Origin: Actinomycetota bacterium
Lineage (GTDB): Bacteria > Actinomycetota > UBA4738 > HRBIN12
Direction: 5' to 3'
Length of the DNA stretch: 64,000 bases
Assembly: GCA_040882605.1 (NCBI GenBank)
Contig: JBBEAY010000062.1
Coordinates: 4,661-68,660, forward strand
The notes under the pieces: model-generated
The model's database searches: none
Seen by the model: only the letters and a program-made list of their open reading frames with translations
What the model was told of the DNA's origin: nothing
Translations under genes and position numbers: made by a program
Part shown: piece by piece, positions 36,740 through 49,769 of the stretch
How positions within the stretch are numbered: the first letter of the stretch is position 1
Layout: the number at the start of each line of letters is the position of its first letter

Positions 36740-37051
36740 GTGGCCGAATGGATCACCGTCGGCAAGTCCGACGAGGTCGCCGAGGGGGACGCCAACGCCT
36801 TCGACGTGAACGGGACCCAGATCGCGGTGGCCCGCGTCGACGGGGCCTTGCACGCGTTCAGCGACATCTGCACGCACCGTCAGTGCAACCTTTCGCTCGG
36901 GGGTGAGATCGATGGCACCACGATCGAGTGCGAGTGCCACGGCAGCATCTTCGAGATGACGACCGGCGCGGTCGTGCAGGGGCCGGCGAGCGAGCCGATC
37001 GCGACCTATCCGGTGTCCGAAGACGGCGACGATCTGAAGATCGAGGCCTGA
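36740..37051 (+). CDS. Rieske-type [2Fe-2S] ferredoxin
   Basis: CTHRQC...CECHGS (CxH...CxxH). 103 aa. GGAGGTG SD precedes GTG 36740. Confidence 0.85.
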   Translation: MAEWITVGKSDEVAEGDANAFDVNGTQIAVARVDGALHAFSDICTHRQCNLSLGGEIDGTTIECECHGSIFEMTTGAVVQGPASEPIATYPVSEDGDDLKIEA

Positions 37052-37064
37052 GGGGTTCCTGTCC

Positions 37065-38306
37065 GTGACGGTCCGAACCCTCGTGATCGTCGGTGGATCG
37101 CTCGCCGGCGCCACCGCCGCAGCCACGCTGCGTGACGAGGGGTTCGATGGGCGTCTCGTGCTGGTCGGCGCGGAGCCGCTGCCTCCGTACGAACGTCCGG
37201 CGCTCTCGAAGGAGTTCCTACGCGGTGAGCAGAAGCTCGAGGAACAATTCGTGCGTCCCGAGCAGTGGTATCGCGACCACGAGGTCGATGCCCGCTTCGG
37301 CGCGCGCGCCGTGCAGCTCGACGTGGCCGGGCGTGAGGTGGTGCTCGCTGGCGGCGAGCGAGTCTCCTACGACGCCCTGCTCGTAGCCACCGGAAGCCGC
37401 AACCGCAAGCTCGACGTGCCCGGCTCGTCGCTGCCCGGCGTCTTCGACCTGCGCACCGTCGGCGATGCCGAGCGCATCAAGGAAGCCGCCGTCACCGGCG
37501 CCCGAATCGTCTGCGTCGGCATGGGTTTCATCGGGGCCGAGGTCGCGGCCTCTATGCGCACGCTCGGCCACGACGTCACGGTCGTGGAGGTTTTCGAGAC
37601 CACCCTGTATCGGGTGCTCGGACCTGACATCGGCCGGGCGCTCGAAGGGCTCCATCGAGATCACGGGGTGACGATGCTGTTCAACGAGGCGGTGGCGAGC
37701 TTCGAGGGCGACGGCCGGCTCGAAGCGGTGGTCACGAGCGGCGGTCGGAGTATCAACGCCGACGTCGCGATCGTCGGCGTCGGCACCGAGCCGAGCGTCG
37801 AGCTGATGGCCGGAACCGGGCTCGACCAGGGCGGCGGCATCCCCGTCGGGCCGACACTCGAGACCTCGGTGCCCGCCGTGTTCGCGGCCGGCGACGTCGC
37901 CCGCCACGACCACCCCGTGTTCGGGCCGATCCGTGTCGAGCACTTCGACAACGCGATCAAGATGGGCCAGACGGCGGCGCGCAACATGCTCGGCGCCGGC
38001 CAGGTCTTCGACGACCCGCACTGGTTCTGGAGCGACCAGTACGACTCCCAGGTGCAGATGGCCGGTTACGCCGCGACCTGGCACCGCATGGTCGTGCGCG
38101 GCTCTGTAGGAGACCGGTCGTTCTGCGCATTCCTGCTCGATGCCGGCGGTGTCGTGCGGTCGACCGTGAGCCTCGACTACAAGCGTGACGTCCGCCGATC
38201 GTTCGGACTGATCTCCGCGCAGGTCGCGCCAGACCCCGACGAGCTCGCCGACCCCGATGTCGACCTCCGCAAGCTCGTCTCCGCGTCCGCGTCGGAAGAA
38301 GGCTGA
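37065..38306 (+). CDS. FAD-dependent ferredoxin--NAD(P)+ reductase (pyridine-nucleotide-disulfide oxidoreductase family)
   Basis: IVGGSLAGATAA, a PYERPALSK-type motif, a second Rossmann motif VGMGFIGAEVA, and GDVA. Confidence 0.85.
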   Translation: MTVRTLVIVGGSLAGATAAATLRDEGFDGRLVLVGAEPLPPYERPALSKEFLRGEQKLEEQFVRPEQWYRDHEVDARFGARAVQLDVAGREVVLAGGERVSYDALLVATGSRNRKLDVPGSSLPGVFDLRTVGDAERIKEAAVTGARIVCVGMGFIGAEVAASMRTLGHDVTVVEVFETTLYRVLGPDIGRALEGLHRDHGVTMLFNEAVASFEGDGRLEAVVTSGGRSINADVAIVGVGTEPSVELMAGTGLDQGGGIPVGPTLETSVPAVFAAGDVARHDHPVFGPIRVEHFDNAIKMGQTAARNMLGAGQVFDDPHWFWSDQYDSQVQMAGYAATWHRMVVRGSVGDRSFCAFLLDAGGVVRSTVSLDYKRDVRRSFGLISAQVAPDPDELADPDVDLRKLVSASASEEG

Positions 38307-39776: not shown

Positions 39777-41357
39777 GTGAGGATCCTCGTCACCGAGCCG
39801 CTCTCGGCGCAGGGGCTCGACCTGCTGCGGGCGGACTTCCAGGTCGACGAACGCCTCGACCTCGCTGCCGGCGACCTCGCAGCCGAGATCGGGGCGTACG
39901 ACGCGCTGATCATCCGCAGCGCCACCCAAGTCACCGACGAGGTGCTTGCAGCCGCCACGAGCTTGAAGGTCGTCGCCCGCGCCGGCATCGGGCTCGACAA
40001 CGTCGACGTCGAGGCGGCCACACGACGCGGGGTGATGGTCGTGAACGCGCCGCAGTCCAACATCATCAGTGCGGCCGAGCAGGCGATGGCGCTCTTGCTA
40101 GCCCAGGCGCGGAACACCCCGCAGGCGCATGCCGCCTTGAAGGCAGGCTCGTGGGAGCGGTCGACGTGGGAAGGCGTGGAGCTCGCAGGCAAGACGATCG
40201 GCCTCGTTGGGCTCGGACGCGTCGGCGCGCTGGTGGCCTCGCGCGCGGCCGGATTCGGCATGCGCGTGATCGCGTTCGACCCCTACGTGAGCGCCGATCG
40301 CGCCAAGGAGATGGGCGTCGACGCGATGCCCTCGCTCGAGGCGCTCCTCGTGCAGGCAGACTTCGTCTCGATCCACCTGCCACGTACGTCGGAGACAGAA
40401 GGGCTGATCGGCGAGCACGAGCTGCGACTCATGAAGCAGGGCGCCAGGTTGATCAACACGGCCCGCGGAGGCCTCGTCGACGAGGAAGCGTTGGCCAAAG
40501 CGATCGAGGACGGCCACCTCGGGGGAGCGGCGCTCGACGTGTTCGCGAACGAGCCGACAACCGACTCGCCCCTGTTCGCGCTCGACTCGGTCGTGGTGAC
40601 TCCGCACCTCGGCGCCTCCACGAAGGAAGCGCAGGACAAGGCAGGCACCACCGTCGCCGAGATGGTCCGCCTCGCGCTCACGGGCGAGTTCGTGCCCTAC
40701 GCGGTGAACGTCTCGGCCGGCGCCGAGGTGACCGAGGTCGTTCGGCCGTTCGTGCCCCTCGCGGAGCGTCTGGGCGCGCTCACCGCTGGGCTCGCCGAGG
40801 GCGGCGTTCGCTCGATCGTCGCGTCCTACCTCGGGCGCATCGCCGAGTCGGATACGCGCGTTCTCACGTTGGCGATCCTCAAGGGCATGCTCGCGCGCAC
40901 CGTGCACGAACCGGTGTCGTTCGTGAACGCTCCGATGCTCGCGCGTGAGCGCGGCCTCACGGTGAGTGAGATGCGCTCGACCGTTTCGCAGGACTACGTC
41001 AGCTCGATCTCGCTTCGAGCTGAGACCGACGCGGACCCCGTCACGGTGTCAGGGTCGGTGCTCGGCAAGGGCCACGAGCGGGTGACGCAGGTCAACGGCT
41101 TCGAGATCGAGGTGACCCCCGCGGGACACATGGTCTTCTTCACCTACCTCGACCGCCCGGGCATCATCGGCACGGTCGGAACCCTGCTGGGTGAGCACCG
41201 CGTGAACATCGCCACGATGGACGTCGGTCGCAAGGCCGAGGGTGGCGATGCGCTGATGTGTCTCACCGTCGACACCGAGGTGCCCTCCGAGGTACTCGAC
41301 ACCGTCGCCTCCCGGATCGAAGCGCACCAGCTGCGCACTGTCACGCTGCCGGCTTGA
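39777..41357 (+). CDS. serA: D-3-phosphoglycerate dehydrogenase (long form with ASB and ACT domains)
   Basis: VARAGIGLDNVD, GLVGLGRVG, NTARGGLVDE, TPHLGAST and a C-terminal ACT domain (DRPGIIGTVGTLLG). Confidence 0.9.
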   Translation: MRILVTEPLSAQGLDLLRADFQVDERLDLAAGDLAAEIGAYDALIIRSATQVTDEVLAAATSLKVVARAGIGLDNVDVEAATRRGVMVVNAPQSNIISAAEQAMALLLAQARNTPQAHAALKAGSWERSTWEGVELAGKTIGLVGLGRVGALVASRAAGFGMRVIAFDPYVSADRAKEMGVDAMPSLEALLVQADFVSIHLPRTSETEGLIGEHELRLMKQGARLINTARGGLVDEEALAKAIEDGHLGGAALDVFANEPTTDSPLFALDSVVVTPHLGASTKEAQDKAGTTVAEMVRLALTGEFVPYAVNVSAGAEVTEVVRPFVPLAERLGALTAGLAEGGVRSIVASYLGRIAESDTRVLTLAILKGMLARTVHEPVSFVNAPMLARERGLTVSEMRSTVSQDYVSSISLRAETDADPVTVSGSVLGKGHERVTQVNGFEIEVTPAGHMVFFTYLDRPGIIGTVGTLLGEHRVNIATMDVGRKAEGGDALMCLTVDTEVPSEVLDTVASRIEAHQLRTVTLPA

Positions 41358-41540
41358 TCTGCTGGATGTCTCACCGCCGATGTGGCCCCGGAATCGGCGC
41401 TCGGTGCGAGCAGTCATCCGCAGCCGCACCGTGATCCGACGGAATCTGGCCCCTCAGCGCTGGCTCGGCTGAATCGCGACTCAGGTTCTCGAACCGCCCT
41501 TTGACCTGGGAGTGGCAGCCAGCACCGCGCCATGGACCTG

Positions 41541-41565
41541 GCTTGAACTGAACGAGCATTCAAGC
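41541..41565. promoter_or_regulatory. 7-bp inverted repeat GCTTGAA-11 nt-TTCAAGC in a locally AT-richer stretch upstream of the flavoprotein/DmdA-like genes
   Basis: Seen directly. It lies about 60 nt upstream of ATG 41624 within a 266-nt intergenic region. Candidate operator. Confidence 0.3.
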
Positions 41566-41623
41566 ATATCCTGTACTCCAACGGCTTCATATGGCCGTAC
41601 AACGAGCGACCGGAAGGGCACCG

Positions 41624-43246
41624 ATGGGGTCCACGAACGGCTACCAGGCGATCGTCGTGGGGGGCGGGCACAACGGGCTCGTCGCGGCCGCGTATCTCGC
41701 GAAGGCCGGTGCCCGCACCGTGGTGCTCGAAGCGCGCCACAAGGTTGGGGGCGCCGCCGACACGATGGCGCCCTGGCCCGACGCGCCCGAGTTCAAGGTC
41801 ACCACGCTCAGCTACGTGATGAGCCTCATGCCCGACACGATCCTGCGCGACCTGCAACTCGAACGACACGGGTACCGGTCGACGCCCGTCGGGCCGTACT
41901 TCCTGCCGTTCCCCGACGGGCGTTGCGTCGTGCAGTACGCCGACGACGCGCAGAAGAACTACGACTCGTTCGCTCAGTTCTCCCAGCGCGACGCCGACGC
42001 GCTCGAACGCTGGGACGCGTGGATCGGGGGCCTCGCCGCAGTGCTTGGTCCGATGATGATGACCACTCCTCCGAGGCTCGGCTCCCTGAAACCCTCCGAT
42101 CTCACGGAGCAGCTCCGGCTCGCATGGCGCTTCCGCGGCCTCGACGTGCGCGGGCTCGCCGACGTCACCCAGCTCATGACGATGTCGGTCGTGGACCTGC
42201 TCGACCGGTTCTTCGAATCCGACCAAGTGAAGACCGTGATGGCGTTGAACGGTCTGATCGGCACGTGGGCGGGTCCCTACGAGCCGGGCACCGGCTATGT
42301 GATGGCGCACCATTCGATTGGCGACGTCGGCGACGGCCACCTGGGCGCCTGGGCGGTGCCAGAGGGCGGTATGGGCGCGGTGAGCGACGCGATCGCGTCG
42401 AGCGCGCGGTCGTTGGGCGCTGACATCCGCACCGAGGCGAGGGTCGCGAAGGTCTTAGTTGAGGGCGGGGCCGCGACCGGCGTCGTGCTCGATTCGGGCG
42501 AGGAGCTTCGTGCGCCGCTGGTCGTCACCGCGATCCATCCGAAGATCACGTTCCTCGAGCAGATCGACCGGGTCGACCTTCCAGCGGACTTCGTCGACGA
42601 CATCAGGAACTGGAAGACCCGCAGCGGCGTCGTGAAGATCAACTGCGCGCTCGACCGCGCCCCGGTGTTCACGGCGATGCCTGAGCTGACCGACCTGACG
42701 GGAGGCTTCGAGCTCGCGCACTCGCTCACCTACCTCGAGAAGGCGTTCGAGCAGGCGCGGGCGGGCGAGCCGGCGACCGCGCCGTTCAGCGACGGCGTGA
42801 TGCCGACCGTGTTTGACCGTTCCCTCGCTCCCGAGGGCAAGCACGTGGTCTCGCTGTTCACGCAGTGGGTGCCACACGAGTGGAGCGAACAGCCGCACAC
42901 CGGCGAGCTCGAGTCTTACGCCGACCGCGTGATCGCCGGCTACGACGAACTCGCCCCCGGGTTCGCCAACTCGGTGCTGCACCGACAGGTGATCGGCCCC
43001 TACGAGATGGAAAGGGAGTGGGGTCTCGTCGGCGGCAACATCTTCCACGGGGAGCTCAGCGCCGAGCAGCTGTTCCACATGCGTCCGGCGCCCGGGTATG
43101 CCGACTATCGCACGCCGATCCGCGGGCTCTACCAGTGCTCGAGCGCGACGCATGGTGGGGGCGGTGTCTGCGGCATCCCTGCCTACAACATGATGCGAGA
43201 GATCAAGAGGGACCGCCGCCGCGGTCTGTTCCGACGGAAGGGTTGA
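41624..43246 (+). CDS. FAD-dependent oxidoreductase, phytoene-desaturase/amine-oxidase fold (COG1233-like)
   Basis: AIVVGGGHNGLVAAAYLAKAGARTVVLEARHKVGGAA dinucleotide motif. About 540 aa. GGAAGGG SD precedes ATG 41624 (track start 41591). Confidence 0.8.
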   Translation: MGSTNGYQAIVVGGGHNGLVAAAYLAKAGARTVVLEARHKVGGAADTMAPWPDAPEFKVTTLSYVMSLMPDTILRDLQLERHGYRSTPVGPYFLPFPDGRCVVQYADDAQKNYDSFAQFSQRDADALERWDAWIGGLAAVLGPMMMTTPPRLGSLKPSDLTEQLRLAWRFRGLDVRGLADVTQLMTMSVVDLLDRFFESDQVKTVMALNGLIGTWAGPYEPGTGYVMAHHSIGDVGDGHLGAWAVPEGGMGAVSDAIASSARSLGADIRTEARVAKVLVEGGAATGVVLDSGEELRAPLVVTAIHPKITFLEQIDRVDLPADFVDDIRNWKTRSGVVKINCALDRAPVFTAMPELTDLTGGFELAHSLTYLEKAFEQARAGEPATAPFSDGVMPTVFDRSLAPEGKHVVSLFTQWVPHEWSEQPHTGELESYADRVIAGYDELAPGFANSVLHRQVIGPYEMEREWGLVGGNIFHGELSAEQLFHMRPAPGYADYRTPIRGLYQCSSATHGGGGVCGIPAYNMMREIKRDRRRGLFRRKG

Positions 43247-43253
43247 GGCACCG

Positions 43254-44408
43254 ATGGCCGAGCAGAACTCGTCGTTCCCGTTCTACTTCGCGAGCTGGTA
43301 CAAGAAGTCGCCGTACTTTCAGCGCACCGTGGAAGCCGGATGCACCAGCTGGGACCTGTACAACCACATGCTGATCCCGACGCTCTACGACGACGACGTC
43401 AAGGAGTACTGGCACCTCGTCGAGAAGGTCACGCTGTGGGATGTGGCAGTAGAGCGCCAGGTTGAGATCACCGGTCCCGACGCGGGCCGGTTCACGCAGC
43501 TGCTCACACCGCGCGATCTTTCCGAGACCCAGCCCGGGCAATGCAAGTACGTGCTGATCTGCGCACCCGACGGCGGCATCGTGAACGACCCGATCTTGTT
43601 GAAGCTCGCCGAGGACCACTACTGGCTCTCGCTCGCCGACTCCGACGCCCTGCTGTACGCGAAGGGCGTCGCGGCGTTCGCCGGGCTCGATGTCGAGATC
43701 CGCGAGCCCGACGTGAGCCCGCTGCAGATCCAGGGGCCGCGGTCGAAGCCGTTGATCCGCAAGCTCTTCGGCGACGAGGTCGCCGACCAGCGCTACTACT
43801 GGCACAAGCAGACCGAGCTGAATGGCATCCCGGTCGTCGTCTCGCGCACCGGCTGGAGCGCCGAGCTCGGCTACGAGGTCTACCTGCGCGACTCCTCCTG
43901 CGCGTTCGATCTCTGGGACGCGATCGTCGTCGCCGGCGAGGAGTTCGAGCTGCGCGTGATCGCCCCGAGCGACCAACGCCGCATGGAAGCCGGCATCTTC
44001 AACTACGGCAACGACATGGACATCACGAACAGCCCGTTCGAGATCACCGGCCTCGAGCGCCTGGTCGAGCTCGACAACGACAACGAGCTCGTGTCACGCA
44101 CGGCACTCGAACGAATCCAGGCCGAGGGCGTACAGCGGAAGCTCGTCGGCGTGACGATCGACGGGCAACCGCTCGGCATGTGGCTCGAAGACTTCTGGCC
44201 GGTCGTCGACGGTGCGACCCAGATCGGCCGTCTCGTGAGCGCCTCGTTCTCTCCGCGGCTGGAGATCAACATGGGCTTCGCCTGGGTTCCGATCGAGAAG
44301 GCGTCCGAGCGCACGCGCATCGAGATCACGTCGCCCAACGGCCCGATGACGGCCACGGTCACCCCGCTCCCGTTCCTCGACCCCAAGAAACAGACGCCCG
44401 CGGGGTAG
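43254..44408 (+). CDS. GcvT-family folate-binding aminomethyltransferase, DmdA-like (paralog 1)
   Basis: SPYF...YNHMLIPTLYDD..EY.HL...VTLWDVAVERQVEITGPDA...GGIVNDPILLKLAEDHYWLSLADSD...DVSPLQIQGP...SRTGWSAELGYEVY closely resembles DmdA/GcvT as I remember them. It starts 7 nt after the flavoprotein stop. Confidence 0.8.
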   Translation: MAEQNSSFPFYFASWYKKSPYFQRTVEAGCTSWDLYNHMLIPTLYDDDVKEYWHLVEKVTLWDVAVERQVEITGPDAGRFTQLLTPRDLSETQPGQCKYVLICAPDGGIVNDPILLKLAEDHYWLSLADSDALLYAKGVAAFAGLDVEIREPDVSPLQIQGPRSKPLIRKLFGDEVADQRYYWHKQTELNGIPVVVSRTGWSAELGYEVYLRDSSCAFDLWDAIVVAGEEFELRVIAPSDQRRMEAGIFNYGNDMDITNSPFEITGLERLVELDNDNELVSRTALERIQAEGVQRKLVGVTIDGQPLGMWLEDFWPVVDGATQIGRLVSASFSPRLEINMGFAWVPIEKASERTRIEITSPNGPMTATVTPLPFLDPKKQTPAG

Positions 44409-44444
44409 GCGGGAGATCGCGCGACGCGCGGCCTGGAGGCTCGG

Positions 44445-44838
44445 CTACCGCCCCCCGGGGAACCAGACGCGGAACGACGCGCCGCCTCCGTCGCGGCCCT
44501 CGACCCAGGCCCTTCCACCGTGCAGCTCGGCGAAGCGGGCGACGAGCGAGAGGCCCACCCCGACCCCCGGAGACTGCGGGTTCGCGCTCGGCCCGCGTTC
44601 GAAGGCTCGGAACAGCGACTCGCGCACCTCGACTGGCACGCCCGGGCCGTCGTCCGGCGGTGAAGCATTCGGGCGCGTACCCGAGCACATCCTGAACCCG
44701 AGGGAAGACGTGCCGGGCTCGGTGGCCGGGCTCGTCGATCTCGACATACACGATGCCGGGCATGTGCTCGATCAGGAGCCGGAAGCCTTCCTCGCGGTCC
44801 CCGCCGGGGACGGCCGAGGAAGCGGGCCCGATGGCCAT
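44445..44838 (-). pseudogene. Remnant of a PAS-domain sensor histidine kinase (internal deletion plus frameshift)
   Basis: One frame reads EGFRLLIEHMPGIVYVEID...VLGYAPE (PAS N-terminus). It is joined out of frame directly to DDGPGVPVEVRESLFRAFERG...GVGVGLSLVARFAELHGGRAWVE (HATPase G1/G2 boxes). The HisKA/DHp domain and the N-box are absent. Confidence 0.6.
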
Positions 44839-44960
44839 GCCGGTGCGGTCGCCGACGCGGCCCGGTCGAGCGATTCCTCGATGTCCGTAGCTCTCGGTGA
44901 GGCATCGGTCGAAGGGCGGTTGGGTGAACCTCTCGTACTTGGGTGTGCGACCCTTGGGAA

Positions 44961-45503
44961 GTGGGATCGCTCACCGGAAGCCTGCTGATCTCGAACGCCA
45001 ACCTCTTCGACCCGAACTTCCGGCGCACGGTCGTGTTGATCGGCCACCACGATGATCAGGGGGCCGTCGGGGTCGTGCTGAATCAACCGCTCGCCGTTGC
45101 CGTGCGAGACGCGGTCCCACCGCTCGGCGACCTGGTCGATGCCGAGGAGCCGCTGTTCGACGGCGGGCCGGTCGAGCCCGAATGCGTCGTCGTGCTCGCG
45201 GACTTCGTCGATCCTTCTAGGGCGGAGATGCTCGCGATGGGTTCGATCGGCTTCCTGCCGCCAGACTCCAGCGACGACATCGCCTCGACGATACGTCGCG
45301 CGCGTGTGTACGCCGGATACGCCGGGTGGGCCCCCGGTCAGCTCGAAGACGAGCTCGAGGAAGACTCCTGGGTCACCGTTCCGGCGCTGCCGGGCGACGT
45401 CTTCCACGAGCAGCCGGCCCGTCTGTGGGAAGACGTGCTGCGCCGGCTCGGTCGCGGATACGACATGCTTCGTTTGATGCCCCGCGATCCCTCGATGAAC
45501 TAG
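44961..45503 (+). CDS. YqgE/AlgH-family (UPF0301) protein
   Basis: GSLLISNANLFDPNFRRTVVLIGHHDDQGAVGVVLNQPL...YAGYAGWAPGQLEDEL..DSW is a canonical YqgE pattern. GTG 44961 is preferred to the track's 44943. Confidence 0.8.
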   Translation: MGSLTGSLLISNANLFDPNFRRTVVLIGHHDDQGAVGVVLNQPLAVAVRDAVPPLGDLVDAEEPLFDGGPVEPECVVVLADFVDPSRAEMLAMGSIGFLPPDSSDDIASTIRRARVYAGYAGWAPGQLEDELEEDSWVTVPALPGDVFHEQPARLWEDVLRRLGRGYDMLRLMPRDPSMN

Positions 45504-45583
45504 CGCGACGCGGTCGGCTGGCGCCGACATCGGTGGGGTATCGTCCGCGCACGCGCGCCGCACGCGACCGGGAGGAGCAGTCG

Positions 45584-46741
45584 ATGGCATCGGAGACGTT
45601 CACGTTCTACGTGCAGCCTTGGTACCGCAAGTCGCCGTACTTCGAGGCGACCAAGCGCCACGGCTGCAAGAGCTGGGGCTTGTACAACCACATGCTGCTG
45701 CCGACCCTCTACGACGACCCGGTGGCCGAGTACAACGCGCTGTTGCACGACGTGACGCTGTGGGACGTGAGCGTCGAGCGGTGCGTCGAGATCCGAGGGC
45801 GTGACGCGTTCGAGCTGACGAACCTCATCACATGCCGCGACCTCACCAAGGTCGGCGTGATGCAGGCGCGGTACGTCCTGCTCACGACCGCATGGGGCGG
45901 CATCGTGAACGATCCGGTGCTGCTGCGGCTCGCCGAGGACCGCTTCTGGCTCGCGCTCGCCGATTCCGACGCCCTGCTGTACGTGGCGGGCGTCGCGGCC
46001 GGTCGTGGCTTCGACGTGGAGATCGAGGAAGCCGACGTGGCGCCGATGCAGATCCAAGGACCGCGCTCGAAGGACGTGATCCGCGACTTGCTCGGCGACG
46101 AGGTGGCGGACCTGCGCTACTACTGGTGCGCCGAGACCCAGGTCGACGGCATCCCTGTTGTCGTCTCTCGCACCGGATGGACGGGCGAGGTCGGCTACGA
46201 GATCTACGGGCAGGACTCGGCCCGTGGCGACCAGCTGTTCGAGGCTGTCTATGCAGCGGGGGAGTCGTACGGCATGCGCGTGATCGCGCCGAGCGAGGCC
46301 CGGCGCATCGAGGCCGGCATCTTCAACTACGGCTCGGACATGCGGGCATCCGACACTCCCCTGCACATCACGGGGCTCGAGAAGTACGTGGAATCCGACC
46401 AGCCGCACGACTTCCTCGGACGCGAGGCGCTCGCGCGGCTCGCCGAGACCGGGGTCGCTCGCAAGCTTGTCGGCATCGACATCGGCGGCGAGCCGATGAC
46501 CGACGAGGGCGCGCTCAACGACTTCTGGCCTGTGCACGAGCCGGGCGGAGCACCGATCGGCCGCGTCACCGCGGGTGCGTGGTCGCCGCGTCTGGAGCGC
46601 AACGTCGGCTATGCATGGGTGCCCTCGTCGCACATGACCGAAGGCACGGGGTTGGAGGTCGCCTCGTCCACGGGTGTTCGCTCAGGGGCCGTCGCCCGGC
46701 TTCCGTTCGTCGATGCCGAGAAGCGGATCCCGGTCTCGTGA
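45584..46741 (+). CDS. GcvT-family folate-binding aminomethyltransferase, DmdA-like (paralog 2)
   Basis: About 55-60% identical to paralog 1 by eye across the full length (YNHMLLPTLYDD, VTLWDVSVERCVEIRG, GGIVNDPVLLRLAEDRFWLALADSD, SRTGWTGEVGYEIY). GGGAGGAG SD precedes ATG 45584. Confidence 0.8.
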   Translation: MASETFTFYVQPWYRKSPYFEATKRHGCKSWGLYNHMLLPTLYDDPVAEYNALLHDVTLWDVSVERCVEIRGRDAFELTNLITCRDLTKVGVMQARYVLLTTAWGGIVNDPVLLRLAEDRFWLALADSDALLYVAGVAAGRGFDVEIEEADVAPMQIQGPRSKDVIRDLLGDEVADLRYYWCAETQVDGIPVVVSRTGWTGEVGYEIYGQDSARGDQLFEAVYAAGESYGMRVIAPSEARRIEAGIFNYGSDMRASDTPLHITGLEKYVESDQPHDFLGREALARLAETGVARKLVGIDIGGEPMTDEGALNDFWPVHEPGGAPIGRVTAGAWSPRLERNVGYAWVPSSHMTEGTGLEVASSTGVRSGAVARLPFVDAEKRIPVS

Positions 46742-47520
46742 GCCAGGGCTCCATCTCGTTCGATCGGGCCGCCGCGTACTACGACGAGACGCGGGTCACC
46801 GACGACGCAAGCCTGCGCACGATCCTCGATCTGCTTGGCGAAGAGGTCTGCGGCCGGGGTCCGGTATTGGAGCTCGGCGTCGGAACCGGCCAGCTCGTCC
46901 TGCCACTCGCCGCACGGGGCGCGCCGGTCATCGGCCTCGACGTGTCTTCAGAGATGATGGCGGTGCTCCGCGACAAGGCGGGCGACACGCCCCGGCTGCC
47001 GCTCGTGCAGAGCGACGCGACCCGGTTGCCGGTCGCCGACGGGTCGCTCGGAGGCGCGTACGCGCGATGGGTCCTGCACCTCATCCCGGATTGGCTTCAG
47101 GCGCTCCGCGAGCTCGACCGCGTGGTGATAGCAGGTGGAAAGGTCGTCATCGAGCCCGGCGGATTCTCAGGGCAGTTCCGCGAGACATACCTGCGGTTCA
47201 AGCAGATCCTGGGCGATGCGGTTGTCGCGGTGGGGCTGAGCCACGTCGACCGCGACCGTCAGCTCGACGACGGGTTCGCCTCGATCGGCTGGGTCTTGCA
47301 TCGCGAGGTCCCTGTCGTCTACGAGCGCACGATCACCCTGCGCGAAGTCTTCGACGAGATCCCCACGAAGCGGTGGTCCTGGACCTGGCGGGTTCCCGAC
47401 GACGATCTCGCCGCAGCCACCGATGAGGTCCGTGCCTGGGCAGAGGCTCGGTTCGGCGGCCTCGACGACCCGGTGCCGGCTGAGTCGACGCGCTGGCGGG
47501 TTTACGCCAGAGCGCCATGA
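46738..47520 (+). CDS. Class-I SAM-dependent methyltransferase (copy A)
   Basis: FDRAAAYYDETR...VLELGVGTGQ (motif I)...GLDVS..M...ATRLP...RWVLHLIPDW. GTGA overlaps the DmdA-like 2 stop. Confidence 0.8.
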   Translation: MSQGSISFDRAAAYYDETRVTDDASLRTILDLLGEEVCGRGPVLELGVGTGQLVLPLAARGAPVIGLDVSSEMMAVLRDKAGDTPRLPLVQSDATRLPVADGSLGGAYARWVLHLIPDWLQALRELDRVVIAGGKVVIEPGGFSGQFRETYLRFKQILGDAVVAVGLSHVDRDRQLDDGFASIGWVLHREVPVVYERTITLREVFDEIPTKRWSWTWRVPDDDLAAATDEVRAWAEARFGGLDDPVPAESTRWRVYARAP

Positions 47521-48296
47521 GCGACTCGATCATGTTCGACCGGGCCGCCGAGTACTACGACGCGACTCGAGGTCTCTCCACCGAAGGCGTCCGCCGAACG
47601 ACCGAGACTTTGGTCGCTGCGTTCGACGGCGCCGGACCGATCCTGGAGGTGGGCGTCGGCACCGGGCAGGTGGCGATGCCGCTGAGCCACGCGGGGGTCG
47701 ACATGGTGGGGCTCGAGCTCTCTCGCCCGATGCTCGCGAAGCTGCTGGCCAAGGCCGGCGGCACACCACCGTTCCGGTTGGTCGAGGGCGACGCCACCCG
47801 CATGCCGTTCTTCGACGATGGCTTCGCGGGCGCCTACCTGCGATGGGTGCTGCATCTGATCCCCGATTGGAGAGCTGCCGTCCGAGAGATCGCTCGAGTG
47901 GTCGCGCCCGGTGGACCTTTCCTGGCGGCGCTCGGCTCCTACGGCGGCATGCGCTCGGAGATCCAAGCTCGATTCGCCGAGATCACCGGCGTCTCGATCG
48001 AGCCGGCCGGCCTCACGTGGGACGGCTGGGATGAGCTCGACGAGGAGGTCGCGATGTTGGGCGGCGAGAGGCTCGACGACGTCACCTTCCTCGAACGCGA
48101 CCGCGACGATCTCGAGGCGTTCGTGAGAGGCATCGAGGGGAACATGTTCTCGTGGACGTGGGCGATCACCGACGAGGCATCTAGGGCGAACGCGACGACC
48201 GGCGCGAGATCGTGGGCCGAAGAACGCTGGGGTCCGCTCGACAAGGTTCCACCGGTAGTGTTCGAGTGGCGTTTCGCCGTCTACCGGCTGCATTGA
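47517..48296 (+). CDS. Class-I SAM-dependent methyltransferase (copy B, tandem paralog)
   Basis: About 40-45% identical to copy A by eye, with the same motifs (FDRAAEYYDATR, ILEVGVGTGQ, RWVLHLIPDW). ATGA overlaps copy A. Confidence 0.8.
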   Translation: MSDSIMFDRAAEYYDATRGLSTEGVRRTTETLVAAFDGAGPILEVGVGTGQVAMPLSHAGVDMVGLELSRPMLAKLLAKAGGTPPFRLVEGDATRMPFFDDGFAGAYLRWVLHLIPDWRAAVREIARVVAPGGPFLAALGSYGGMRSEIQARFAEITGVSIEPAGLTWDGWDELDEEVAMLGGERLDDVTFLERDRDDLEAFVRGIEGNMFSWTWAITDEASRANATTGARSWAEERWGPLDKVPPVVFEWRFAVYRLH

Positions 48297-48324
48297 GCTC
48301 GGCTGAGGCCAACCGGCGTACCCG

Positions 48325-48753
48325 TCAGTCGTTCACGTAGTCGTCGGGGTGATCGACCACGCCCGGCGCATCTTCGCGGACGTGCATCGCGGCGAGCTCC
48401 GGGGCGACATGACCCTCGGTGAGATCGGAGTCGGCCACGAGATCCGGCTCGCGATCGACCCCGTCTTCATCGTCGCCATCGACCAGATCGACGCTCGTGT
48501 CGCGCCGCACACGCTGAGGCTGTTCGCGACGGGTCCGGTCGTCGATCGTGTCACCGTCGTGCTGCTCGGACGCCGTGGTGTCCTCGTCGACACCCTGGTA
48601 GCAGTCCATGTCGCTGATCATGTCCTCCATCGCTTCGCCGCCGTCATCATCGGCGTCGGTCGGTGATGGTCCCTCACTCGGTGTGAGCTGACTTCCATTT
48701 CCCATGGGGTCGGTCATAGCCGTCACCGTACCCGGCTTCCCTCGGGTCCACAC
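48325..48753 (-). CDS. Highly acidic small protein (DUF5709-like), unknown function
   Basis: By my count about 40 of 142 residues are Asp or Glu. The C-terminal ...PELAAMHVRED... resembles the DUF5709 pattern. An alternative start is ATG 48717. Confidence 0.5.
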   Translation of the reverse strand: MWTRGKPGTVTAMTDPMGNGSQLTPSEGPSPTDADDDGGEAMEDMISDMDCYQGVDEDTTASEQHDGDTIDDRTRREQPQRVRRDTSVDLVDGDDEDGVDREPDLVADSDLTEGHVAPELAAMHVREDAPGVVDHPDDYVND

Positions 48754-48842
48754 CCTCGCGGGGGTGCCTGAACGCCGGTATCCTTGGGCTCATCGCCCGG
48801 CGCGGAACCGCACGCGCGACGCCACCAGTAGGAGGTTCGAAG

Positions 48843-49769
48843 GTGCCGATCACCGAGGTCGAGAAGATCTGGATGAACGGCGAGCTCGTGCTCTGGCAGG
48901 ACGCCAAGGTGCACGTGCTCAGCCACGCCCTGCACTACGGCAGCGGCGTATTCGAGGGCATCCGGGCATACGAGACCTCGCGCGGCCCCGCGGTGTGGCA
49001 TCTCGATGCGCACCTCGACCGCATGTACAGCTCGGCGGGCATCTACTTCATGGACATCCCGTATTCCAAGGCCGAGCTCGTCGACGCCGTCAAGCAGACG
49101 ATCCGCGTCAACGGGCTGCAGTCGTGCTACATCCGGCCGATCGCGATCCGCGGGTACGGCGAGATGGGCGTGAGCCCGCTCGCGAACCCAGTCGACGTCT
49201 CGATCGCCGTCTGGCCATGGGGCGCTTACCTCGGTGAGGAAGCCCTCGAGCAAGGCGTGCGGGTGAAGATCAGCTCGTGGAGGCGCCACGACCAGAACTC
49301 GTTGCCTTCCGCCGCGAAGGCCACGGGCGGATACCTCGGGTCCATACTTGCGAAGGTCGATGCCATCAAGTCCGGCTACGACGAGGCCGTGCTGCTGAAC
49401 GCCGAGGGCTACGTGACCGAGGGCTCGGGCGAGAACATCTTCGTCGTGAACGGCGGCACGCTCGTCACGCCGCACACCGGACACGGCTGCCTGGCGGGCG
49501 TCACGCGCAGCGCGGTCATGACGATCGCGCGCGACCTCGGTTTCCCTGTGCTCGAGCAGAACCTCGTGCGCACCGATCTCTACACGGCCGACGAGGTGTT
49601 CTTCACAGGCACGGCCGCCGAGATCACCCCGATCCGTGAGGTCGACGATCGCACGGTGGGGGCCGGGCACCGCGGTTCGGTCACCAAAGCCCTGCAAGAC
49701 GCGTTCTTCGCCGCCACCAAGGGCGACGACCCCAAGTACGTGGAGTGGCTCACGTACGTGAACGACTGA
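48843..49769 (+). CDS. ilvE: Branched-chain-amino-acid aminotransferase (class IV)
   Basis: IWMNGELV.W.DAKVHVLSHALHYGSGVFEGIRAY..., YIRPIA, AAKATGGYLGS and ENIFVV. TAGGAGGT SD precedes GTG 48843. Confidence 0.9.
   Translation: MPITEVEKIWMNGELVLWQDAKVHVLSHALHYGSGVFEGIRAYETSRGPAVWHLDAHLDRMYSSAGIYFMDIPYSKAELVDAVKQTIRVNGLQSCYIRPIAIRGYGEMGVSPLANPVDVSIAVWPWGAYLGEEALEQGVRVKISSWRRHDQNSLPSAAKATGGYLGSILAKVDAIKSGYDEAVLLNAEGYVTEGSGENIFVVNGGTLVTPHTGHGCLAGVTRSAVMTIARDLGFPVLEQNLVRTDLYTADEVFFTGTAAEITPIREVDDRTVGAGHRGSVTKALQDAFFAATKGDDPKYVEWLTYVND

Follow-up and report, generated by a model that had tools for sequence, protein, structure and literature searches.

Two DmdA-like proteins of the GcvT fold, GT1 and GT2, are encoded close together in a genome of an uncultured soil Actinomycetota lineage, each within a gene set of its own. 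Our preferred reading, to which we give slightly less than an even chance, is that the locus carries two separable demethylation modules that would demethylate a betaine- or sulfonium-type compound, with folate as acceptor of the methyl groups. The first pairs GT1 with a flavoprotein (FLAV), and the second couples GT2 to two tandem SAM methyltransferases (MT1 and MT2). A preliminary description of this DNA had treated the locus as one system. Comparison with related loci does not bear this out, as the FLAV–GT1 and GT2–methyltransferase sets are separable and half of the related loci are without GT2 yet keep the methyltransferases.

Organization of the locus

Both modules lie in a syntenic island bounded by serA and ilvE. 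FLAV, GT1, an algH/yqgE-family gene, GT2, MT1 and MT2 are all on the forward strand. Coordinates are those of the window, by which we mean the whole stretch of 64,000 nucleotides that was analysed.

41358 to 41623, no strand: spacer between serA and FLAV, 266 nt, where an MFS transporter gene stands in most related loci
41624 to 43246, + strand: FLAV, FAD flavoprotein, 540 aa, amine-oxidase superfamily, CrtI/CrtO (COG1233) branch; module 1, gene 1
43254 to 44408, + strand: GT1, 384-aa putative THF-binding, DmdA-like protein of the GcvT fold; module 1, gene 2
44445 to 44747, − strand: histidine-kinase remnant, C-terminal part of HATPase_c only; outside both modules
44943 to 45503, + strand: algH/yqgE-family gene, 186 aa (Pfam DUF179/AlgH-like, E=6e-35; NCBIfam YqgE/AlgH)
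45584 to 46741, + strand: GT2, 385 aa, second putative DmdA-like paralog, in the predicted demethylase slot of module 2
46738 to 47520, + strand: MT1, class I SAM methyltransferase, 260 aa, TTHA0223 type (Pfam Methyltransf_11, E=3e-20)
47517 to 48296, + strand: MT2, 259-aa paralog of MT1, class I SAM methyltransferase

Direct reading of the sequence gives TGA-GGCACCG-ATG at the FLAV/GT1 junction, a spacer of 7 nt, and 4-nt overlaps at the GT2/MT1 (GTGA) and MT1/MT2 (ATGA) junctions. The genes, the short spacer and the GTGA-coupled tandem methyltransferases are as the preliminary description had given them, although the algH/yqgE gene and the histidine-kinase remnant between the two paralogs had been overlooked. 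GT1 and GT2 are not contiguous, a 535-nt spacer, which contains the remnant, and the algH/yqgE gene lying in between. The HATPase_c match of the remnant spans only profile positions 44–108 of 111 (Pfam); at the comparable place another locus (L044) has a full-length kinase ORF of 651 aa. The algH/yqgE gene ends 80 nt upstream of GT2. It occurs in almost every syntenic locus, and the transcript of module 2 may start with it. The MFS ORF is seen directly upstream of FLAV, after serA, in loci L003, L006 and L014, where it measures roughly 420–450 aa and contains the MFS_1 and MFS_3 domains (Pfam). By tblastn this gene is detected in most related loci and is absent from the window.

The substrate-specific neighbours MTHFR, CoA ligase and betaine transporter were found neither in the window nor in the 79 syntenic loci, and the annotated neighbours include no gcvH or gcvP. 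Close homologs are abundant in metagenomes (more than 8000), in which FLAV is 76–92% conserved. Weak hints of expression come from short contigs only, from runs labelled RNA-Seq.

The housekeeping genes gatB, serA, ilvE and pepN share synteny with the locus across the 79 loci. As the neighbourhood as a whole is syntenic, adjacency within this lineage alone is weak evidence. Inherited synteny within a single lineage could by itself account for the gene order, with no functional link among the genes and with the GcvT-fold genes being diverged housekeeping glycine-cleavage T proteins. We hold this explanation to be very improbable. It is largely refuted by the family assignment of GT1 and GT2, by the persistence of the FLAV–GT1 pair beyond the synteny block with a parallel in another phylum, and by the specific replacement of GT2 with another type of demethylase.

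Family assignment of GT1 and GT2

GT1 and GT2, which share 56% identity, each consist of GCV_T and GCV_T_C (Pfam). The best model for both is that of DmdA (NCBIfam NF009133 / PRK12486; cutoff 410), with 364.1 bits for GT1 and 326.3 bits for GT2. Both curated gcvT cutoffs are missed: TIGR00528 (cutoff 235.85) by about 100 bits, with 136.5 bits for GT1 and 142.0 bits for GT2, and PRK00389 (cutoff 300) with 172.3 and 168.8 bits, respectively. With only 27–29% identity to Bacillus subtilis GcvT for both paralogs, the assignment as GcvT is rejected. Among solved structures Pelagibacter DmdA (3tfh) matches best, with 251 bits as against 90 bits for dimethylglycine oxidase (DMGO); identity to 3tfh is 37% for GT1 and 32% for GT2.

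The paralogs share the signature YNHML(I/L)P, GGIVNDP and SRTGW(S/T)..GYE(V/I)Y, which matches that of 3tfh (YNHMLxP / NDP / GW[ST]..GYE.Y). The Trp of this signature has been named as key for the interaction with DMSP, and the Glu/Tyr as folate-binding (PMC7487153). The Trp varies even within the DmdA clade. In the tree, GT1 and GT2 fall in a 5-row clade of their own with 99% support, and 3tfh is in a separate 10-row clade with 100% support. The earlier view of the paralogs as DmdA-like proteins, and not GcvT, is upheld by the model scores, the best structure, the identities, the tree and the signature alike.

Comparison with the known DmdA proteins (Pelagibacter ubique 3TFH and Ruegeria pomeroyi SPO1913) shows the same stand-alone architecture of about 370–385 aa, with the same two domains and signature, and relatives of GT1 and GT2 adjoin MTHFR or dmdB/dmdD-like genes. 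The present proteins differ from DmdA in their low identity, in their scores below the curated cutoff and in their separate, well-supported clade. They also differ in their host, a soil actinobacterium, and in their neighbours, which include no dmdBCD but a CrtO-like flavoprotein and SAM methyltransferases. An assignment as true DmdA is rejected, despite the DmdA-type signature, by the score below 410 bits and the position outside the 3tfh clade. As judged from sequence, GT1 and GT2 are a clade of their own, DmdA-like and with a DmdA-type active-site signature.

The genes found beside relatives of GT1 and GT2 point to the chemistry. In locus L083, two tandem GT genes are followed by DUF5981 and MTHFR. 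The Roseobacter homologs (51–54% identity) are in a cluster of the type Lrp / GT-OsmC-enoyl-CoA hydratase-acyl-CoA synthetase, and a GT-AMP-binding fusion protein exists among the relatives. A further relative of GT1 belongs to a betaine/sarcosine cluster, in L085, and comes immediately after a DAO flavoprotein. The presence of MTHFR, of CoA ligase with hydratase, and of DAO with sarcosine oxidase argues for demethylation of methyl-onium or N-methyl compounds onto THF.

The flavoprotein

FLAV matches Amino_oxidase (E=1.5e-14) and NAD_binding_8 in Pfam. Its top NCBIfam model is CrtO, with 240.4 bits against a cutoff of 1000, and it scores 73.7 bits on crtI_fam (cutoff 238). As both family cutoffs are missed and no carotenoid biosynthesis genes are found nearby (the neighbours are serA, GT1, algH, the methyltransferases and ilvE), a CrtI/CrtO carotenoid desaturase or ketolase is rejected. 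So is a DAO-family amine oxidase, since the PF01266 match is limited to residues 9–44, the Rossmann start, and the full-length similarity is to CrtO/CrtI. FLAV is single, with no second flavoprotein paralogous to it in the window.

An AF2 model of FLAV (pLDDT 78.9, pTM 0.82) predicts the three-domain CrtI/amine-oxidase fold. In Foldseek its best match is the carotenoid desaturase 4rep (E=2.6e-22, TM 0.74/0.81), and the next matches are CrtI (4dgk, E=1.6e-19), NicA2, putrescine oxidase and MAO.

Module 1: pairing of FLAV with GT1

In 63 related MAG loci FLAV and GT1 stand side by side, separated by 6 nt at the median, and the pair is kept outside the synteny block in three unrelated settings (L069, L070 and L080). 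Four genera of Alphaproteobacteria (Fuscovulum, Rhizobium, Shinella and Parasedimentitalea) have FLAV homologs with 37–42% identity, encoded there in one operon with a GcvT-fold protein other than GT1. These three lines of evidence together argue that the coupling of the flavoprotein to a folate protein is real, and that FLAV–GT1 is a conserved functional unit, as far as gene sequence and order can tell. The pairing put forward in the preliminary description is in this respect borne out. An apparent fusion of flavoprotein and GcvT-fold protein (P0243) is a frameshift artefact; the window genes are separate.

The pair had been likened to a split dimethylglycine oxidase built on another flavoprotein fold. 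By this logic FLAV would oxidise a secondary or tertiary amine at an N-methyl group, giving the iminium, and GT1, bound to FLAV, would take up the one-carbon unit on THF to yield 5,10-methylene-THF. The pair would then be a two-component folate-coupled oxidative N-demethylase on a flavoprotein of the CrtO type (with putative kinship to PYROXD2) in place of the DAO type. We consider this possible, if on balance doubtful. Tight and conserved coupling, in a pair that moves as a unit, is what it would predict. DMGO (1PJ5), DMGDH and the heterotetrameric sarcosine oxidase SoxBDAG likewise join a flavoprotein to a folate module of the GcvT fold, fused in DMGO and on separate subunits in SoxA/SoxB; here, however, the flavoprotein is of the CrtI/CrtO and not the DAO type, GT1 is DmdA-like and not SoxA- or DMGO-like, and the two are unfused. 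Flavin amine oxidases are the structural neighbours of the modelled FLAV after the carotenoid desaturases, and a stand-alone aminomethyltransferase (AMT) adjoining monomeric sarcosine oxidase has been noted in SAR11 (PMC3160333).

Two sets of relatives bear directly on this mechanism. The alphaproteobacterial operons (Fuscovulum ytuae, Rhizobium sp. SL42, Shinella zoogloeoides and Parasedimentitalea marina plasmids) read TetR / FADa-FADb-aminomethyltransferase and are near amine/polyamine-type ABC transporters, aminotransferases and Rieske oxygenases. FADa aligns with FLAV over its full length and is translationally coupled to a stand-alone GcvT-fold gene, but there are two paralogous flavoproteins and the partner is canonical-GcvT-like (32–34% identity to B. 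subtilis GcvT), whereas our locus has one FLAV and a DmdA-like partner. In L085 the DAO flavoprotein and the GT-like protein are at the dimethylglycine step, between a gene with a PF02574 homocysteine S-methyltransferase domain, which may encode a betaine methyltransferase of the BHMT type, and SoxBDAG. The arrangement looks like a literal split dimethylglycine oxidase. The canonical-GcvT-like partner and the L085 pairing are more easily explained if an iminium made by the flavin is captured than if the two proteins act in sequence. Nevertheless, the L085 protein and the alphaproteobacterial AMTs bear GcvT-type residues (GY/GF, NNP/DD), unlike GT1 with its YNHMLxP, NDP and GW. This difference favours direct methyl transfer by GT1 and weakens iminium channelling, so that of the earlier proposal the pairing stands, with the L085 arrangement in its favour, and the channelling step loses ground. 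The closest cultured homologs of GT1, moreover, do without any flavoprotein, and stand-alone GT1-like copies occur in the same lineage.

Module 2: the GT2 slot and the methyltransferases

In 28 loci a methyltransferase follows GT2 at a median distance of 9 nt, which confirms the tight coupling already noted in the window. The slot upstream of the methyltransferases holds GT2 in 26 loci, an oxygenase in 16, neither in 8 and both in none. The oxygenase of these 16 sister loci is GbcA-like and Rieske-less, stands upstream of the same methyltransferases, and scores 89 bits on the GbcA model (cutoff 670). Its similarity is to the catalytic subunit of glycine betaine monooxygenase (GbcA) and the Rieske-type N-/O-demethylating oxygenases; it differs from these in having no Rieske domain, it is not in the window, and it would be O2-dependent, not folate-dependent. 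On the GT1 tree the alternation of GT2 and oxygenase needs at least 15 switches. The alternation argues that the slot encodes a demethylase and that the methyltransferases are its constant partners. This exchange had been overlooked before; the expected co-conservation is found within FLAV–GT1 and within GT2–methyltransferase, and not for the whole set as one unit.

The number of methyltransferase copies per related locus is 1–3, and some loci have them with neither GT2 nor oxygenase. MT1 and MT2 are 42% identical. Their nearest solved structure is 2yqz (the uncharacterised class I SAM methyltransferase TTHA0223 of Thermus thermophilus), which aligns with both along their whole length, C-terminal domain included, at a low similarity of 66–92 bits. 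On the sarc_dimgly N-methyltransferase model (cutoff 550) MT2 scores 16.6 bits and MT1 has no match, and no MmtN chain is among the PDB matches of either. Both proteins are rejected as glycine/sarcosine/dimethylglycine N-methyltransferase or MmtN.

These data bear on the proposal that the locus both makes and breaks an osmolyte. In such a synthesis/degradation pair, one to three methyltransferases would build a betaine or sulfonium osmolyte by SAM-dependent methylations, and GT2 or the oxygenase together with FLAV–GT1 would dismantle it and pass the methyl groups to the folate pool. Tandem methyltransferases in variable copy number recall the two-enzyme route from glycine to betaine, they adjoin a demethylase of either mechanistic type, and a weak methyltransferase–GT fusion (P0282) is known. 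The family assignments of MT1 and MT2 given above point the other way, and co-transcription of making and breaking genes would be futile. We judge this explanation unlikely.

Discussion

The interpretation offered in the preliminary description is partly supported. The locus is real and unpublished, a putative variant of folate-linked demethylation, and its modules are conserved and unstudied. Under the explanation that we prefer, that of two demethylation modules, GT1 and GT2 would be stand-alone THF-dependent methyltransferases of the DmdA type. We infer that each demethylates a positively charged donor, a quaternary ammonium or sulfonium compound such as a betaine- or DMSP-like osmolyte, and forms 5-methyl-THF. 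In module 1, normally with an MFS transporter in front, GT1 would be coupled to the CrtO/PYROXD2-like flavoprotein (the PYROXD2 kinship is putative). FLAV may be an oxidase that acts by C–N or C–C dehydrogenation, either on the product of demethylation or on the next N-methyl group, so that the pair would catalyse consecutive steps on one substrate. In module 2, perhaps beginning with algH, the demethylase would be coupled to one to three methyltransferases of the TTHA0223 type, and would be GT2 or, in sister genomes, the O2-dependent Rieske-less GbcA-like oxygenase. The methyltransferases would act on the same compound family, either to build the methylated substrate or to re-methylate the product. 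The translational coupling of a demethylase to methyltransferases counts against the explanation by two demethylation modules, and so do the lack of a substrate-specific neighbour, the variable signature Trp, the weak evidence of expression, and the loci that keep the methyltransferases with neither GT2 nor oxygenase.

A broader reading is conceivable, although we rate it as rather improbable. FLAV–GT1 may represent an unrecognised two-component folate-coupled demethylase in which the oxidative step falls to a flavoprotein of the CrtO/PYROXD2 family (putative) and the transfer of the methyl or methylene group to THF falls to a DmdA-type protein recruited for the purpose, with GT2 and the Rieske-less oxygenase interchangeable for the conserved methyltransferases. 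A flavoprotein family with different GcvT-fold partners across phyla would set N-methyl/onium demethylation as the chemistry of the family. If this is true, the human orphan enzyme PYROXD2, the putative kin of FLAV, would gain a function open to testing, and the set of GT2 or oxygenase with methyltransferases would be a demethylase–methyltransferase cassette of a kind not yet described.

Gene organization

The locus combines a flavoprotein gene (FLAV), the genes of two GcvT-fold paralogs resembling the DMSP demethylase DmdA (GT1 and GT2) and those of two class I SAM methyltransferases (MT1 and MT2), in a window whose G+C content is 67-71%.

36740-38306: Rieske ferredoxin and FAD reductase, upstream of the island
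41358-41623: 266-nt spacer between serA and FLAV, the site of an MFS gene in most related loci
41624-43246, plus strand: FLAV, a COG1233 FAD flavoprotein of 540 aa
43254-44408, plus strand: GT1, GcvT-fold paralog 1
44445-44747, minus strand: histidine-kinase remnant, matching HATPase_c profile positions 44-108 only (the C-terminal third of the ATPase domain)
44943-45503, plus strand: algH/yqgE
45584-46741, plus strand: GT2, GcvT-fold paralog 2
46738-47520, plus strand: MT1, SAM methyltransferase
47517-48296, plus strand: MT2, SAM methyltransferase

The preliminary description was accurate, but it omitted algH and the 535-nt spacer 3' of GT1 that contains the kinase remnant. At a comparable position in the homologous locus L044 a full-length kinase ORF of 651 aa is found, also on the minus strand. 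Read from the sequence, the FLAV/GT1 junction is TGA-GGCACCG-ATG (7 nt), while GT2/MT1 and MT1/MT2 overlap by GTGA and ATGA, respectively. No riboswitch was detected with Rfam, either at the gathering threshold across the whole window or at E≤1 over 41000-49000, and no regulator hints at the substrate. Short contigs from two soil runs labelled RNA-Seq, which come from related strains and possibly contain DNA, cover all of the genes; with the same proviso of DNA, one crosses GT2/MT1 (46455-47117) and another MT1/MT2 (47495-48047).

GT1 and GT2 form a clade beside DmdA

GT1 and GT2 are 56% identical and share the architecture GCV_T + GCV_T_C. Among curated models DMSP demethylase scores highest, with 364 bits for GT1 and 326 for GT2 against a cutoff of 410, and the glycine-cleavage models fall about 100 bits short of theirs. 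The best match among solved structures, at 251 bits, is DmdA from Pelagibacter (3tfh; Bacillus subtilis GcvT reaches 122 bits, dimethylglycine oxidase 90), to which GT1 is 37% and GT2 32% identical. Both paralogs have the signature YNHMLxP / NDP / GW[ST]..GYE.Y in common with DmdA. PMC7487153 assigns this Trp the key part in the interaction with DMSP, and PMC5395565 describes DmdA chemistry as redox-neutral methyl transfer giving 5-methyl-THF, unlike that of GcvT.

The family gives 508 matches at E≤1e-30 among 1.84 billion cluster representatives, and close homologs of the clade number more than 8000 in metagenomes from soil and sediment. Exact-sequence look-ups with the window's GT1 and with the copies in L023 and L069 gave no match. 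A tree built from 52 full-length rows (SH-aLRT support) places 3tfh in a 10-row clade (100%) and GT1 and GT2 together in a separate 5-row clade (99%). The likeness to DmdA rather than GcvT that had first been proposed is upheld by the model and structure scores, identity, the tree and the DmdA signature. On model cutoffs, identity and tree we reject a canonical GcvT, and on the model cutoff and the clade also a true DmdA.

FLAV is coupled to GT1 beyond inherited synteny

Similarity of FLAV to CrtO spans its full length, at 240 bits vs a cutoff of 1000. An AF2 model (pLDDT 78.9) matches the carotenoid desaturase 4rep (TM 0.74/0.81) and CrtI, followed by the flavin amine oxidases NicA2, putrescine oxidase and MAO. 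On the low score and the gene context we reject a carotenoid role. For the human orphan PYROXD2, a literature search returned metabolite associations only and no enzymology.

A species-level genome collection yielded 79 related loci, all in uncultured Actinomycetota MAGs from soil or sediment, with 66-93% identity in GT1. The conserved order is class-V aminotransferase, serA, (MFS), FLAV, GT1, algH, (GT2), one to three methyltransferases, ilvE, pepN and ALDH. The transporter gene (MFS_1/MFS_3-like) directly precedes FLAV in most of these loci, as at L014:7001-8266 and L003:5432-6811, and is missing from the window. FLAV and GT1 are adjacent in 63 loci (median gap 6 nt). Since gene order is conserved throughout the lineage, adjacency inside it is by itself little evidence, and mere synteny is one reading to be weighed. 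Three loci (L069, L070 and L080), however, keep the pair in different surroundings with no island gene present: YceI lies 5', and a radical-SAM/SPASM gene plus sulfatase, or signalling proteins, lie 3'.

A parallel is found in Fuscovulum, Rhizobium, Shinella and Parasedimentitalea, on whose plasmids a FLAV homolog (37-42% identity) heads an overlapping operon, FADa-FADb-aminomethyltransferase, behind a TetR gene (L089:6641-14634, L090:8007-12389, L092:5992-10383, L093:6001-11800). We know of no published characterisation of this operon. It adjoins aminotransferases, polyamine-type ABC transporters and, in Fuscovulum, Rieske oxygenase subunits (alpha). Its aminomethyltransferase resembles canonical GcvT, with 32-34% identity to the B. 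subtilis protein and 27-30% to GT1/GT2, so FLAV-like proteins are joined to a different GcvT-fold subfamily in each of two phyla. No GcvT-fold partner accompanies three FLAV homologs that are more distant (33-41%). The 63-locus adjacency, the non-syntenic contexts and the alphaproteobacterial parallel go beyond inherited synteny, and we regard a link by synteny alone, like a housekeeping role as GcvT, as essentially excluded.

Several further features were seen around the pair. In L069:11215-15873, FLAV-GT1 is followed by the radical-SAM/SPASM protein, with an 855-aa sulfatase on the other strand; speculatively, this setting points to a sulfated onium compound, for instance choline-O-sulfate. 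In about nine loci (L002, L021, L023-L025, L027, L028, L038, L045) a further GT1-like paralog, the third of the lineage, stands alone; its copies share about 81% identity with GT1 and 88-93% with one another, and no conserved neighbours were found for them. AFD bin42 has a syntenic copy (L063) plus another (L060). An APH(6)/hydroxyurea-kinase-family phosphotransferase gene separates GT1 from algH in seven loci (L004:11143-12033, L011, L012, L013, L022, L029, L050); a choline-kinase/APH-family gene also comes after a GT-like gene in L086, and the association with phosphotransferases may therefore not be accidental.

GT2 alternates with a Rieske-less oxygenase

MT1 and MT2 are 42% identical, both belong to Methyltransf_11, and their sole full-length structural relative is TTHA0223, a protein of no known function. 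On profile scores and structure matches we reject MmtN and glycine/sarcosine N-methyltransferases. The number of methyltransferase copies varies from one to three across related loci. All of these genes had at first been treated as one combined locus. The coupling of GT2 to a following methyltransferase holds in 28 loci (median gap 9 nt); a single system does not, as 27 of the 54 loci that are intact between GT1 and ilvE lack GT2, and a methyltransferase is nevertheless kept in 24 of these.

In loci lacking GT2, the place downstream of algH and upstream of the methyltransferase is often taken by an ORF of about 320-335 aa that corresponds to the catalytic domain (PF00848) of a ring-hydroxylating oxygenase alpha subunit, with no Rieske domain. 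Its best named model is the glycine betaine monooxygenase GbcA, at 89 bits vs a cutoff of 670. Examples in sister loci, which have no counterpart in the window, are L006:11788-12747, L004:12620-13585 and L014:11738-12742. Among 50 loci with algH and ilvE, GT2 occupies this slot in 26, the oxygenase in 16 and neither in 8; none has both. The state of the slot requires at least 15 changes on the GT1 tree, and well-supported branches alone require at least six for GT2 and at least three for the oxygenase. In the window's own 20-row clade (100%), 15 oxygenase loci are mixed with five GT2 loci. Repeated swapping of two mechanistically unrelated demethylase types before the same methyltransferases would make GT2 a demethylase and the methyltransferases its partners, and this alternation is the strongest evidence for both assignments. 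A pairing of synthesis with degradation for an osmolyte, as the preliminary description also proposed, is possible, and we give it a low probability.

The Rieske ferredoxin and reductase genes are conserved upstream in GT2-type and oxygenase-type loci alike, and have no oxygenase partner within the window. Their products could be the electron donors of the Rieske-less oxygenase.

Relatives of the GT proteins suggest a chemistry

In L083:997-4908, two tandem GT genes (49% identity to GT1, 53% to GT2) precede DUF5981, a MetV-like small protein, and MTHFR. MTHFR behind tandem GT genes is what a 5-methyl-THF product would lead one to expect, and the unit looks like a compact set for producing and oxidising methyl-THF. 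In the window and the syntenic loci no MTHFR was found. GT1 homologs (51-54%) are also encoded on Roseobacter plasmids and differ from the annotated DmdA (35-40%). In Loktanella (L087:8334-13133) and Phaeobacter (L088:8347-13087) such a gene lies beside Lrp and is followed by OsmC, enoyl-CoA hydratase and acyl-CoA synthetase, a cluster that echoes dmdA/dmdD/dmdB and yet is separate from the annotated dmdA of those bacteria. Two cluster representatives are apparent natural fusions: in P0258 (694 aa) a GT-like domain is fused with an AMP-binding (CoA ligase) domain, and P0282 (714 aa), whose sequence looks eukaryotic, has a GT-like domain behind an N-terminus that weakly resembles class I methyltransferases. 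A third, P0243, appeared to fuse FLAV and GT and is a frameshift artefact.

A different arrangement is seen in L085:760-12129, where IclR and a DAO flavoprotein gene are followed by a GT-like gene, S-methyl_trans (PF02574, a homocysteine S-methyltransferase domain), SoxB-SoxD-SoxA-SoxG and formate-THF ligase. The GT-clade protein directly 3' of the DAO gene is 50% identical to GT1, and the whole resembles a cluster for turning betaine into glycine, in which the dimethylglycine oxidase is literally split. A stand-alone AMT beside monomeric sarcosine oxidase has been noted in SAR11 (Sun et al., PMC3160333). The preliminary description suggested that FLAV and GT1 could work in the same manner, with FLAV making an iminium that GT1 captures. 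Both L085 and the FADa-FADb-aminomethyltransferase operons speak for this serious rival. At the signature positions, however, the DAO-partnered protein reads CNRMYHP / NNP / GY, whereas GT1, GT2 and the Roseobacter proteins retain the DmdA form, and GT relatives also occur without any flavoprotein; on balance we consider a split oxidase less likely than direct methyl transfer. We tentatively favor, from signature and gene context, GT1 and GT2 as direct methyl-onium:THF methyltransferases, in which case FLAV would take either the product of demethylation or the next N-methyl group.

Discussion

The features of this locus are real and strongly conserved, and we found no published description of them; our literature search likewise returned no flavoprotein-GcvT demethylase of the FLAV-GT1 type. 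We interpret the locus as two modules, each of which would give folate-linked demethylation, a known theme, a new form. The novelty of FLAV-GT1 is the CrtO-type flavoprotein partner; that of GT2-MT1-MT2 is the demethylase slot coupled to SAM methyltransferases, which a DmdA-like protein fills in some loci and a Rieske-less oxygenase in others.

To our knowledge, no GT-clade protein has a known substrate, and DMSP demethylation has so far been regarded as a marine alphaproteobacterial trait. If the clade consists of methyl-onium:THF methyltransferases, it would represent a large unrecognised soil sink for betaine- or sulfonium-type osmolytes, one that would supply the folate pool without oxygen or cobalamin. 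"Phytoene dehydrogenase-like" proteins are a large and routinely misannotated family, for which the conserved pairing of GT1 with a CrtO-like flavoprotein provides a concrete, assayable hypothesis. The recurrent exchange of folate-dependent and oxygenase-type demethylases in one chromosomal slot offers a clean natural experiment in non-homologous replacement.
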